From NCBI RefSeq assembly GCF_003334335.1, contig NZ_QOWQ01000014.1: DNA of 64,000 nucleotides; one strand, written 5' to 3'. Of this stretch, positions 7,253 through 40,847 are shown in pieces. Every line of letters begins with the position of its first letter. The first letter of the stretch is position 1. Origin of the DNA: Escherichia coli (lineage in GTDB: Bacteria; Pseudomonadota; Gammaproteobacteria; Enterobacterales; Enterobacteriaceae). The translations under genes were made by a program, and so were the position numbers. The notes beneath the pieces were generated by a model that worked only from the letters and a program-made list of their open reading frames with translations, ran no database searches and was not told the DNA's origin.

Positions 7253-8443
7253 TTACAGCACCTTATGCGGGCCAAAGCATTCGTAATGAATGTTTTCCTG
7301 CTTCACGCCCAGATCCACTAACTGTTTCGCGGTAAACTGCATGAAGCCAACCGGGCCGCAGAGATAGAACTGCATTGTCGGATCGCTGAACGCACCTTCC
7401 AGTTTGCTCAAATCCATCAGACCTTCGCTATCAAACTGACCTTTAGCGCGATCGGCTTCGCTCGGCTGACGATACCAGGTGTGCGCGGTAAAGCGCGGCA
7501 GTGACTGCCCCAGTTCCTTAACTTCATCGGCAAAGGCGTGAACATCGCCATTTTCTGCCGCATGGAACCAGTTCACTTGTGCTGTGTGGCCTGCTTTTGC
7601 CAGCGTGTCGAGCATTGCCAGCATTGGCGTTTGACCAACACCGGCAGAGATTAACGTCACTGGTGTGTCATCTGCGACAGCCATAAAGAAATCACCTGCC
7701 GGAGCGACCAGTTTCACGACATCGCCAACATTGGCGTGATTGTGCAACCAGTTGGATACCTGCCCACCCTCTTCGCGTTTCACCGCAATACGATAGCCTT
7801 TGCCATCCGGTTTGCGAGTCAAAGAGTACTGACGAATTTCCTGATGTGGGAAACCTTCCGGCTTCAGCCAGACGCCGAGATATTGCCCCGGACGGTATTC
7901 TGCCACTGCGCCACCGTCGACCGGCTCCAGTTCGAAGCTGGTGATAAGCGCGCTGCGCGGTGTTTTAGCCACAATGCGGAAATCGCGAGTACCTTCCCAA
8001 CCACCGGCTTTGCTGGCGTTTTCGTTATAGATTTCCGCCTCGCGATTGATAAATACATTAGCCAGTACACCATAGGCTTTACCCCACGCGTCCAGCACTT
8101 CCTGCCCCGGGCTGAACATTTCGTCCAGCGTTGCCAACAGGTGTTCACCGACGATGTTGTACTGTTCCGGTTTGATCTGGAAGCTGGTGTGCTTCTGCGC
8201 GATTTTTTCTACCGCTGGCAGCAGCGCAGGCAGGTTTTCAATATTACTGGCGTAGGCGGCAATAGCGTTAAACAGGGCTTCACGTTGATCGCCATTACGC
8301 TGGTTACTCATGTTAAAAATTTCTTTGAGTTCTGGGTTATGAGTAAACATACGGTCGTAGAAATGGGCGGTTAACTTTGGCCCCGTTTCCACCAGTAAAG
8401 GGATGGTGGCTTTTACTGTAGCGATGGTTTGAGCGTCAAGCAT
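7253..8443 (-). CDS. hmp: flavohemoglobin (NO dioxygenase)
   Basis: ORF track 7253..8464 (-); start taken at the internal ATG giving [17 protein letters not shown]... (396 aa); globin, FAD and NAD domains recognisable. Confidence 0.95.
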
Positions 8444-8460
8444 ATGGTCTTCCTTTTTTT

Positions 8461-8492
8461 GCATCTTAATTGATGTATCTCAAATGCATCTT
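8461..8492 (-). promoter_or_regulatory. NsrR-type operator palindrome in the hmp promoter
   Basis: Minus-strand reading aagatgcatttgagatacatcaattaagatgc: imperfect inverted repeat of AAGATGCATTT-like half-sites immediately upstream of the hmp start. Confidence 0.55.
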
Positions 8493-8770
8493 ATAAAAAA
8501 TAGCCCTGCAATGTAAATGGTTCTTTGGTGTTTTTCAGAAAGAATGTGATGAAGTGAAAAATTTGCATCACAAACCTGAAAAGAAATCCGTTTCCGGTTG
8601 CAAGCTCTTTATTCTCCAAAGCCTTGCGTAGCCTGAAGGTAATCGTTTGCGTAAATTCCTTTGTCAAGACCTGTTATCGCACAATGATTCGGTTATACTG
8701 TTCGCCGTTGTCCAACAGGACCGCCTATAAAGGCCAAAAATTTTATTGTTAGCTGAGTCAGGAGATGCGG

Positions 8771-10024
8771 ATGTTAAAGCGTGAAATGAACATTGCCGAT
8801 TATGATGCCGAACTGTGGCAGGCTATGGAGCAGGAAAAAGTACGTCAGGAAGAGCACATCGAACTGATCGCCTCCGAAAACTACACCAGCCCGCGCGTAA
8901 TGCAGGCGCAGGGTTCTCAGCTGACCAACAAATATGCTGAAGGTTATCCGGGCAAACGCTACTACGGCGGTTGCGAGTATGTTGATATCGTTGAACAACT
9001 GGCGATCGATCGTGCGAAAGAACTGTTCGGCGCTGACTACGCTAACGTCCAGCCGCACTCCGGCTCCCAGGCTAACTTTGCGGTCTACACCGCGCTGCTG
9101 GAACCAGGTGATACCGTTCTGGGTATGAACCTGGCGCATGGCGGTCACCTGACTCACGGTTCTCCGGTTAACTTCTCCGGTAAACTGTACAACATCGTTC
9201 CTTACGGTATCGATGCTACCGGTCATATCGACTACGCCGATCTGGAAAAACAAGCCAAAGAACACAAGCCGAAAATGATTATCGGTGGTTTCTCTGCATA
9301 TTCCGGCGTGGTGGACTGGGCGAAAATGCGTGAAATCGCTGACAGCATCGGTGCTTACCTGTTCGTTGATATGGCGCACGTTGCGGGCCTGGTTGCTGCT
9401 GGCGTCTACCCGAACCCGGTTCCTCATGCTCACGTTGTTACTACCACCACTCACAAAACCCTGGCGGGTCCGCGCGGCGGCCTGATCCTGGCGAAAGGTG
9501 GTAGCGAAGAGCTGTACAAAAAACTGAACTCTGCCGTTTTCCCTGGTGGTCAGGGCGGTCCGTTGATGCACGTAATCGCCGGTAAAGCGGTTGCTCTGAA
9601 AGAAGCGATGGAGCCTGAGTTCAAAACTTACCAGCAGCAGGTCGCTAAAAACGCTAAAGCGATGGTAGAAGTGTTCCTCGAGCGCGGCTACAAAGTGGTT
9701 TCCGGCGGCACTGATAACCACCTGTTCCTGGTTGATCTGGTTGATAAAAACCTGACCGGTAAAGAAGCAGACGCCGCTCTGGGCCGTGCTAACATCACCG
9801 TCAACAAAAACAGCGTACCGAACGATCCGAAGAGCCCGTTTGTGACCTCCGGTATTCGTGTAGGTACTCCGGCGATTACCCGTCGCGGCTTTAAAGAAGC
9901 CGAAGCGAAAGAACTGGCTGGCTGGATGTGTGACGTGCTGGACAGCATCAATGATGAAGCCGTTATCGAGCGCATCAAAGGTAAAGTTCTCGACATCTGC
10001 GCACGTTACCCGGTTTACGCATAA
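8771..10024 (+). CDS. glyA: serine hydroxymethyltransferase
   Basis: ORF track 8765..10024; start ATG 8771 preceded by GGAG (8761-8764); [23 protein letters not shown]...; PLP-lysine motif [14 protein letters not shown]. Confidence 0.95.
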
Positions 10025-10063
10025 GCGAAACGGTGATTTGCTGTCAATGTGCTCGTTGTTCAT

Positions 10064-10161
10064 GCCGGATGCGGCGTGAACGCCTTATCCGGCCTACAAA
10101 ACTTTGCAAATTCAATATATTGCAATCTCCGTGTAGGCCTGATAAGCGTAGCGCATCAGGC
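10064..10161. repeat. BIME (two inverted REP palindromes with spacer)
   Basis: gccggatgcggcgtgaacgccttatccggcctac ... gtaggcctgataagcgtagcgcatcaggc; near-identical to the cluster at 39121-39216. Confidence 0.8.
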
Positions 10162-10221
10162 AATTTTTCGTTTATGATCATCAAGGCTTCCTTCGGGAAG
10201 CCTTTCTACGTTATCGCGCCA

Positions 10222-30954: not shown

Positions 30955-31695
30955 ATGCTGCAAAATATTCGAATTGTGCTGGTGGAGACGTCACACACCG
31001 GCAATATGGGTTCTGTTGCCCGTGCCATGAAAACAATGGGATTAACCAATCTGTGGCTGGTTAATCCACTGGTGAAACCCGACTCCCAGGCGATTGCCCT
31101 GGCAGCAGGGGCCAGCGATGTGATTGGTAATGCTCACATCGTCGATACGCTCGACGAAGCGTTAGCCGGTTGTAGCCTGGTGGTGGGCACCAGCGCACGT
31201 TCCCGCACGCTGCCATGGCCGATGCTCGACCCGCGCGAATGCGGCCTGAAAAGCGTCGCTGAAGCGGCAAATACCCCGGTGGCGCTGGTGTTTGGTCGCG
31301 AGCGCGTCGGCTTGACCAATGAAGAGTTGCAGAAATGCCATTATCATGTCGCGATTGCGGCTAACCCGGAATACAGCTCGCTGAACCTGGCGATGGCGGT
31401 TCAGGTTATTGCCTATGAAGTGCGCATGGCCTGGCTGGCAACTCAGGAAAACGGCGAGCAGGTCGAGCATGAAGAGACGCCGTATCCGCTGGTCGATGAT
31501 CTGGAGCGTTTTTATGGTCATCTGGAACAAACGCTGCTGGCAACCGGTTTTATCCGTGAAAACCATCCGGGGCAGGTGATGAATAAATTGCGCCGTCTGT
31601 TTACCCGTGCGCGCCCGGAAAGCCAGGAGTTGAATATCCTGCGCGGGATTCTGGCTTCTATTGAGCAGCAGAATAAAGGTAACAAGGCCGAATAA
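30955..31695 (+). CDS. trmJ: tRNA (cytidine/uridine-2'-O-)-methyltransferase (SpoU/TrmH family)
   Basis: 246-aa ORF, first gene ahead of iscR; methyltransferase motifs not individually checked. Confidence 0.9.
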
Positions 31696-31880
<185 letters not shown>

Positions 31881-32544: not shown

Positions 32545-32655
32545 TAAAAAGAATTCAGAATCAGGCCGGAGTGCTAAATACTCCGTAAACACGGTCGTAC
32601 ATCCAGCCGGTAGCCTGATTCCTTGCATTGAGTGATGTACGGAGTTTATAGAGCA

Positions 32656-39112: not shown

Positions 39113-39120
39113 ACTAATAT

Positions 39121-39216
<96 letters not shown>

Positions 39217-39253
39217 CATTTGCGCCCCGAACGTTGAATGAATTGTGGTTCTT

Positions 39254-40285: not shown

Positions 40286-40317
40286 CCTTTCCTAAAGCCA
40301 GCGCCCGTTTGCGAGAC

Positions 40318-40513
40318 GGCGGAAAGGGCCGCAGTGGATAATACACTAACAGAACAATAATAACTCTCTTTTGCTTGACAAAAAGAGAGTTACTGGCGAG
40401 TATTGTCTCCGCTGAGACGCGCTTGCATTACTACGGTAATACAACCTGCTGGAAAGGCCGCGAACCGGACCAGCAACAAAAAACCGCCTGATTTTGGCGG
40501 TTTTTTGTTTTTT
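40318..40513. repeat. tandem module copy 1 (palindrome with promoter hexamers + bidirectional terminator)
   Basis: ggcggaaagggcc...taactctcttttgcttgacaaaaagagagtta (perfect 12-bp stem 40361-40372 / 40381-40392) ...ctgctggaaaggccgcgaacc...aaaaaaccgcctgattttggcggtttttt; about 80-85 percent identical to copy 2. Confidence 0.85.
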
Positions 40514-40668
40514 AAAGGAAAGTGAATTTACATGTTTAAGTAATATCTTTTACCGGTTAGAATTTTTAATTTTGAGCAGGATTTGTTTATATTTGTCTGA
40601 ATTCGGACTAATAAGCCAGGTTATTTTATTACCGAACACGGCGGAAAGGGCCGGTGTCGATAATACGC
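40478..40668 (-). ncRNA. predicted second (sibling) minus-strand transcript driven by module copy 2
   Basis: Same TTGTCA-16-TATTGT hexamers conserved in copy 2 (plus 40698-40703 and 40676-40681); would terminate at the copy-1 terminator (40478-40506); no ORF longer than a few codons; AT-rich body. Confidence 0.3.
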
Positions 40669-40831
40669 TAAATAAACAATAATTACTCTCTTTTGCTTGA
40701 CAAAAAGAGAGTTACTGGTGAGTATTGTTTTGCTGTGAAGCACCTGCGTTGCTCATGTAACACAAGTCAACCTGCTGGAAAGGCCGCGAACCAGACTAGC
40801 AATAAAAAACCGCCAAATTCGGCGGTTTTTT
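40640..40831. repeat. tandem module copy 2; its terminator also serves sseA
   Basis: ggcggaaagggccggtgtcgataatacgctaaataaacaataattactctcttttgcttgacaaaaagagagtta...aaaaaaccgccaaattcggcggtttttt; terminator stem conserved but loop differs from copy 1; period between copies 322 bp. Confidence 0.85.
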
Positions 40832-40847
40832 ATTGCCTGTAAAATAC

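Follow-up and report, generated by a model that had tools for sequence, protein, structure and literature searches.

The stretch of Escherichia coli DNA analysed here, 64 kb in length and referred to below as the window, maps in reverse orientation to positions 2694277–2630187 of the E. coli MG1655 chromosome and shares 99.97% identity with it. In a direct comparison, with the repeat region left out, the two sequences differ by 14 single bases. Two divergent genes lie at the locus of interest. The hmp gene, which encodes the flavohaemoglobin (NO dioxygenase), occupies positions 7253–8443 on the minus strand; glyA, which encodes serine hydroxymethyltransferase, occupies positions 8771–10024 on the plus strand. 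Both ranges include the stop codon, and the two open reading frames are 100% identical to MG1655 b2552 and b2551, respectively. The true ATG of hmp is represented by the CAT at 8441–8443, corresponding to the annotated start MLDAQ; the program-listed open reading frame begins seven codons further upstream. The genes glrK, qseG, glrR and glnB are found on one side of the locus, and yphH and yphG on the other side.

The intergenic control region between hmp and glyA (8444–8770) is 327 bp in length. The open reading frame coordinates define its ends, and its GC content is 38.8%, compared to ∼53% in the flanks; the description of the region as an AT-rich divergent spacer in the first-pass annotation was therefore correct. 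Like the two coding sequences, the spacer is 100% identical to that of MG1655. It is present in exactly one copy in 5426 of 5426 complete E. coli genomes (at least 95% identity), and its identity reaches at least 99% in 5385 of these 5426 genomes. No RNA family was found in the spacer by the Rfam scan.

Several other elements of the window were noted during the analysis. One REP-like element of ∼105 bp is located downstream of glyA (10062–10166) and recurs at 39119–39221 with 90% identity. The trmJ-iscR intergenic region contains one tandem repeat (31695–31879) with a 91-bp unit; it is present in 2.0 copies, whereas the alignment implies three copies in MG1655. Owing to this one missing copy, the window falls 91 bp short of its MG1655 counterpart, and the copy difference is the sole indel relative to K-12 in the 64 kb. 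The repeat contains an Rfam naRNA4 match at 31757–31828, a REP325-type element. The iscR gene itself, an Rrf2-family paralogue of nsrR, lies at ∼32.06–32.54 kb (mapped from MG1655), and the Rfam iscRS stability element is located at 32545–32654. The segment 40029–40834, in which the ryfA and IS128 sRNA families are found, includes one internal duplication, 40316–40509 versus 40638–40834, of 82% identity.

The hmp promoter and its NsrR operator

The consensus scan predicted one sigma-70 promoter for hmp on the minus strand (8488–8517). It is composed of the −35 hexamer TTTACA (8517–8512), an 18-nt spacer and the −10 hexamer TAAGAT (8493–8488); an alternative −10 hexamer, TATAAG (8495–8490, minus strand), overlaps TAAGAT. 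In the alignment of 79 hmp promoter sequences, the −35 and −10 hexamers both fall into near-invariant columns. The NsrR operator, which was assigned by identity to the published site, matrix score and conservation, is located at 8470–8492 on the minus strand. It is an 11-1-11 inverted repeat in nature, with the sequence AAGATGCATTT-G-AGATACATCAA in the hmp sense. The conserved left arm covers the predicted −10 hexamer, in either its TAAGAT or its TATAAG form, and the overlap between operator and hmp promoter that had been proposed earlier is thus upheld. Beyond the left arm, the operator spans the probable hmp transcription start. On the promoter as predicted, this placement over the −10 hexamer and the start is the geometry of a repressor. 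One FNR site is reportedly located at −2 to +11 of hmp; this position would presumably put +1 near G8481, in agreement with the predicted promoter.

The window contains a single copy of the 21-mer quoted in the first-pass annotation, aagatgcatttgagatacatc, at 8472–8492 of the minus strand. The annotation had assigned the repeat to 8461–8492; the repeat is indeed present on the hmp side, but this range is 11 nt too long at its low end. The symmetric unit is the 23-mer 8470–8492, with its axis at G8481, and 7 of its 11 position pairs are complementary; when the quoted 21-mer is read as a 10-1-10 repeat, the number drops to just 3 of 10. The term imperfect inverted repeat is thus acceptable in the 23-mer frame, but the strength of the repeat was overstated, as its symmetry is at chance level. 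The spacer has 305 23-mers, of which 6 reach the value of 7/11; for the 23-mers of the window as a whole, the proportion is 1.0%. The inverted-repeat search, performed with a 6-nt seed, reported none, and the two arms of the operator share only 4-nt exact runs. The bare palindrome does not rise above chance; the signal is carried by the match to the NsrR motif.

To score this match, we turned Table 4 of Mehta 2015 (PMC5320621), which has 27 rows of 11-1-11 sites, into a position weight matrix (PWM). The identical rows c0118 and c0233 were counted once and hmp was omitted, leaving 25 sites, which were symmetrised. With a score of 18.1 bits, the hmp site ranks first among the ∼64,000 positions of the window; the runner-up scores 15.9 bits. 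In first-order Markov simulations of the window, only 0.06 matches of at least 18.1 bits are expected by chance per 64 kb, and only 5.5% of the simulations attained the score of the hmp site anywhere. The motif scan thus places the hmp site above the threshold for an NsrR match.

The runner-up, TCATTTTATTTTAAAAAAATGTT, is located at 49204–49226 in the pbpC-ndk intergenic region, immediately upstream of TAGTCA-17-TATAAT (49238–49266), the promoter predicted for ndk. Mehta 2015 (PMC5320621) reported a 201-fold increase of ndk in the nitrate-grown CFT073 triple mutant and no NsrR ChIP peak at this position. We rejected the match as a probable false positive, AT-rich and UP-element-like in nature; its coincidence with the ndk induction remains.

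The window site, TTGATGTATCTCAAATGCATCTT, is identical, letter for letter, to the hmp entry in Table 4 of Mehta 2015 (PMC5320621). In that study, the hmp site was ChIP-seq positive in CFT073, with a PatSer ln(P) of −18.22 against a threshold of −14.28, and Table 2 lists one NsrR peak between glyA and hmp with 3.79-fold enrichment. This enrichment is modest beside those of ytfE, hcp and grxD (Mehta 2015, PMC5320621). The same paper notes that hmp was also bound in an earlier ChIP-chip study of K-12. Rodionov 2005 had predicted the same conserved NsrR site at hmp, and in reviews NsrR figures as the main repressor of this gene that responds to NO.

In addition to the operator, the hmp 5′ leader contains one weak half-site-like element, AAGATGCAAAA (8457–8467, minus strand), which scores 7.4 bits. 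It forms a direct repeat with the operator, as TGCATCTTA is present in both elements with 25-nt spacing. The 11-mers named at hmp by Mehta 2015 (PMC5320621) are AAGATGCATTT (score 10.92) and AAGATGCAAAA (score 5.00), the latter being the hmp(19) entry with a PatSer score of 5.0. This extra copy is probably the reason why the coordinates of the repeat had been stretched. In the 79-sequence alignment, the half-site is not conserved outside Escherichia.

Conservation of the operator and the nested FNR box

For comparison, we scanned for the Hmp protein in one genome per species. The scan yielded 80 enterobacterial loci, 78 of which had usable upstream sequence. In 78 of 78 loci from other Enterobacteriaceae, the orthologous site gives the best PWM match within the 400 nt that precede hmp, with scores of 17–30 bits; the NsrR site is thus found in every aligned hmp promoter. 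The centre of the operator lies 37–39 nt (∼38 nt) before the hmp ATG in most of these loci. Hardly any variation is seen in the alignment at the left arm of the operator, at the TATAA next to it or at TTTACA in the −35 region. The conserved cores of the operator read GATGCAT and ATACATC. Taken together, the identity to a published ChIP-positive operator, the PWM score and this conservation support the statement of the first-pass annotation that NsrR represses hmp at such a site.

Among the 5426 complete E. coli genomes, 5220 contain an exact match to the 30-mer centred on the operator. The remaining 206 genomes (∼4%) do not contain the exact 30-mer. One divergent sequence, that of strain K_EC180, was compared with positions 8415–8539 of the window. 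Its 23-bp operator is unaltered; it has one A fewer in the run between the −35 and −10 hexamers of hmp, one T fewer in the 5′ leader, and one C>T change in the second half-site.

The operator described here is located at the same locus as the hmp NsrR operator of E. coli K-12 and CFT073 (Rodionov 2005; Bodenmiller & Spiro 2006; Partridge 2009; Mehta 2015), and the 23 bp, the glyA-hmp context and the second half-site AAGATGCAAAA are all identical. The ytfE operator, AAGATGCATTTAAAATGCATCTT, is a near-perfect 11-1-11 palindrome; it shares the left arm AAGATGCATTT and the repressor with hmp. Different from ytfE, whose right arm is AAATGCATCTT, the right arm of hmp, AGATACATCAA, is degenerate, and the two operators score 32 and 18 bits, respectively. 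The ChIP enrichments are 9.7 for ytfE and 3.8 for hmp (Mehta 2015, PMC5320621), and the hmp right arm also serves as an FNR box.

The E. coli copy has the lowest NsrR score of the 79 sequences, 17.2 bits. Among the other Escherichia loci, three of four score 17.2 bits, the same as the window, and the fourth, from a cryptic-clade Escherichia, reaches 22.9 bits; outside Escherichia, the scores range from 20 to 30 bits. The hmp operators of Citrobacter, Enterobacter, Klebsiella, Raoultella, Kluyvera and other genera are similar to that of E. coli in position, flanking TATAA and left arm. However, their right halves are of TTTAAAATACATCAT type; the Enterobacter-type right arm, for instance, is AAAATACATCAT, unlike that of E. 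coli hmp. These operators score 20–30 bits and contain poorer FNR boxes (3–8 of 10). Two Escherichia-specific bases, G8479 and A8470, lower the fit to the NsrR motif and at the same time fill out the FNR box.

This FNR box, TTGAG-ATAC-ATCAA, is located inside the right arm of the NsrR operator (8470–8483, minus strand) and matches the consensus TTGAT-N4-ATCAA at 9 of 10 positions. Could the operator primarily be an FNR site, at which [4Fe-4S] FNR binds TTGAG-N4-ATCAA at the transcription start under anaerobic conditions and represses hmp until NO inactivates FNR? The close consensus match favours this explanation, and the FNR boxes of Escherichia are the best among the genera compared. Moreover, Myers 2013 reported that hmp expression is FNR-dependent and that hmp has a PWM-predicted FNR site, citing Cruz-Ramos 2002 for binding. 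However, no FNR ChIP-seq peak was detected at hmp in vivo in the same study (Myers 2013). The specificity of the pattern is also low: with one mismatch allowed, 2.1 matches would be expected in the window and six are present. Furthermore, the bases that define the NsrR site are conserved, whereas those that define the FNR site are not. Boxes matching at 9–10 of 10 positions are confined to Escherichia and some Citrobacter, and the commonest scores are 6–7 of 10. In the orthologous promoters beyond Escherichia and Citrobacter, G8479 is kept in 0% and A8470 in ∼10%, and Rodionov 2005 likewise found the FNR site of hmp conserved solely in close relatives. Considering all these data, we regard a primary role of FNR at this operator as rather unlikely. 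Across the 79 sequences, the NsrR and FNR scores are anticorrelated (Spearman rho −0.44, a value not corrected for phylogeny).

The glyA side of the spacer

The part of the spacer further away from hmp contains several conserved blocks. One of them (8555–8592, plus strand), recognised in the alignment, carries two MetR-like repeats, TGAAAAATTTGCA at 8555–8567 and TGAAAAGAAATCC at 8577–8589, which are spaced by 22 nt and match the consensus with one and two mismatches; binding of MetR to the spacer is known from the literature. A third, weaker match is located at 8599. When two mismatches are allowed, the MetR consensus TGAA-N5-TTCA has 297 matches in the window versus 272 expected. Because such a degenerate pattern occurs at chance frequency, the MetR assignment rests on the cited literature.

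The PurR box, AGGTAATCGTTTGCGT (8637–8652, plus strand), matches the ideal palindrome at 13 of 16 positions and is the sole match in the window. With three mismatches allowed, 0.65 matches are expected in the window, so that the pattern is at chance level by itself. The box falls into the near-invariant block 8640–8664 of the alignment. RegulonDB rates the evidence for the PurR site of glyA as 'confirmed', and control of glyA by PurR and MetR is described in the cited work of Stauffer and colleagues. The PurR and MetR assignments on the glyA side are thus supported by conservation, the cited work and RegulonDB; the patterns alone are not significant.

Downstream of the PurR box, the promoter scan predicted one glyA core promoter, TTGTCA-16-AATGAT (8661–8688, plus strand), in a conserved block, and an alternative predicted −10 hexamer, TATACT (8694–8699, plus strand), is conserved as well. 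The last ∼35 nt before the glyA ATG (AAAATTTTATTGTTAGCTGAGTCAGGAGATGCGG; leader 8735–8770) are near-invariant across genera. This conservation exceeds what a Shine-Dalgarno sequence would need and suggests a post-transcriptional element.

In published reviews, hmp is described as strongly repressed by NsrR, repressed by FNR, weakly repressed by Fur and activated by MetR. The conserved blocks and the literature support the earlier view that glyA is controlled by MetR and PurR, but the control is not fully separate, as MetR has been reported to act at hmp too. For Fur, the best match in the spacer reaches 11 of 19 positions and none is convincing. The 7-2-7 pattern of NarL/NarP has no match in the spacer, and its count in the window is at chance.

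One may also consider that the NO induction of hmp proceeds mainly via MetR bound in the spacer, through depletion of homocysteine by S-nitrosoglutathione, with the palindrome at the hmp promoter being incidental. The conserved 8555–8592 block, with its repeats 22 nt apart, is in line with such a role. However, the consensus matches occur at the chance frequency given above, the reviews ascribe the strong repression to NsrR and treat MetR as a further input, and there is separate evidence for the operator in its conservation and in its occupancy by NsrR in vivo (Mehta 2015, PMC5320621). According to the reviews, the NsrR literature also implies that NO induction stays complete when metR is deleted. 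This explanation is therefore improbable. As for a chance AT-rich pseudo-palindrome with no regulatory role, the mere 7/11 symmetry, shared by six 23-mers of the spacer, and the empty inverted-repeat search would fit, but the first rank in the PWM scan (0.06 expected), the presence of the site in 78 of 78 relatives at a fixed distance from the ATG and the published ChIP occupancy (Mehta 2015, PMC5320621) speak against it, and this reading is effectively refuted by the conservation and the ChIP data.

Control of hmp by NsrR and implications

Based on these observations, we conclude that NsrR almost certainly has its operator in the E. coli hmp promoter at positions 8470–8492 of the window. The computations made here show that the site is identical to the published one, that its PWM score is significant, where it lies with respect to the predicted promoter and how well it is conserved; the in vivo occupancy by NsrR and the response to NO are taken from the literature. 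According to the literature, holo-NsrR is an Rrf2-family homodimer with an NO-sensitive Fe-S cluster and binds 11-1-11 inverted repeats; nitrosylation of the cluster by NO lowers its DNA affinity, hmp is derepressed and the NO dioxygenase is made.

Applied to the window, one holo-NsrR dimer would occupy 8470–8492. Since the repeat extends over the −10 hexamer and the probable start of hmp, the bound dimer would block RNA polymerase, presumably by steric hindrance. Nitrosylation of the Fe-S cluster by NO would then release NsrR and derepress hmp. FNR may add anaerobic repression through its nested box, in which case FNR and NsrR would be competitors for one stretch of DNA. Further upstream, the MetR-type repeats and the PurR box, common to the divergent glyA, would act. 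A similar arrangement is known from the IscR type-1 operators, where an Rrf2-family Fe-S repressor binds an AT-rich imperfect palindrome overlapping the target promoter, as NsrR does at hmp. The motif of IscR is different and so is its signal, Fe-S status instead of NO.

The operator had also been suggested as a marker of intact NO-responsive regulation. This claim goes further than the operator alone can show. The nsrR gene is not among the genes of the window (MG1655 2630187–2694277), in which iscR is the sole Rrf2 gene; because nsrR lies outside, intact NO regulation cannot be concluded from the window. For annotation, the value of the result is that the hmp promoter carries the canonical NO-responsive operator, the same as in K-12. 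All aspects of the feature have been described before; it is ordinary and conserved, and the hmp operator opens no new question.

How the weak right arm of the Escherichia operator arose is a matter for a more tentative proposal. The operator might have been remodelled so that two Fe-S sensors compete for it, which we offer as a possibility and not as the expected outcome. The substitutions G8479 and A8470 (plus-strand coordinates) may be part of this remodelling, as may the Escherichia-specific half-site at 8457–8467, 25 nt downstream. All of the components are published; only the evolutionary trade-off and the masking link were inferred by us. As to the latter, it is plausible that NsrR occludes the bases common to the two sites and that this explains the silence of hmp in FNR ChIP-seq.

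The E. coli site represents an unusually weak, dual-use NsrR/FNR form of an operator that is strongly conserved in enterobacteria. If the remodelling took place, NsrR occupancy would account for a good FNR site at hmp that is silent in FNR ChIP-seq, and the weak operator would free hmp from repression earlier than ytfE or hcp.
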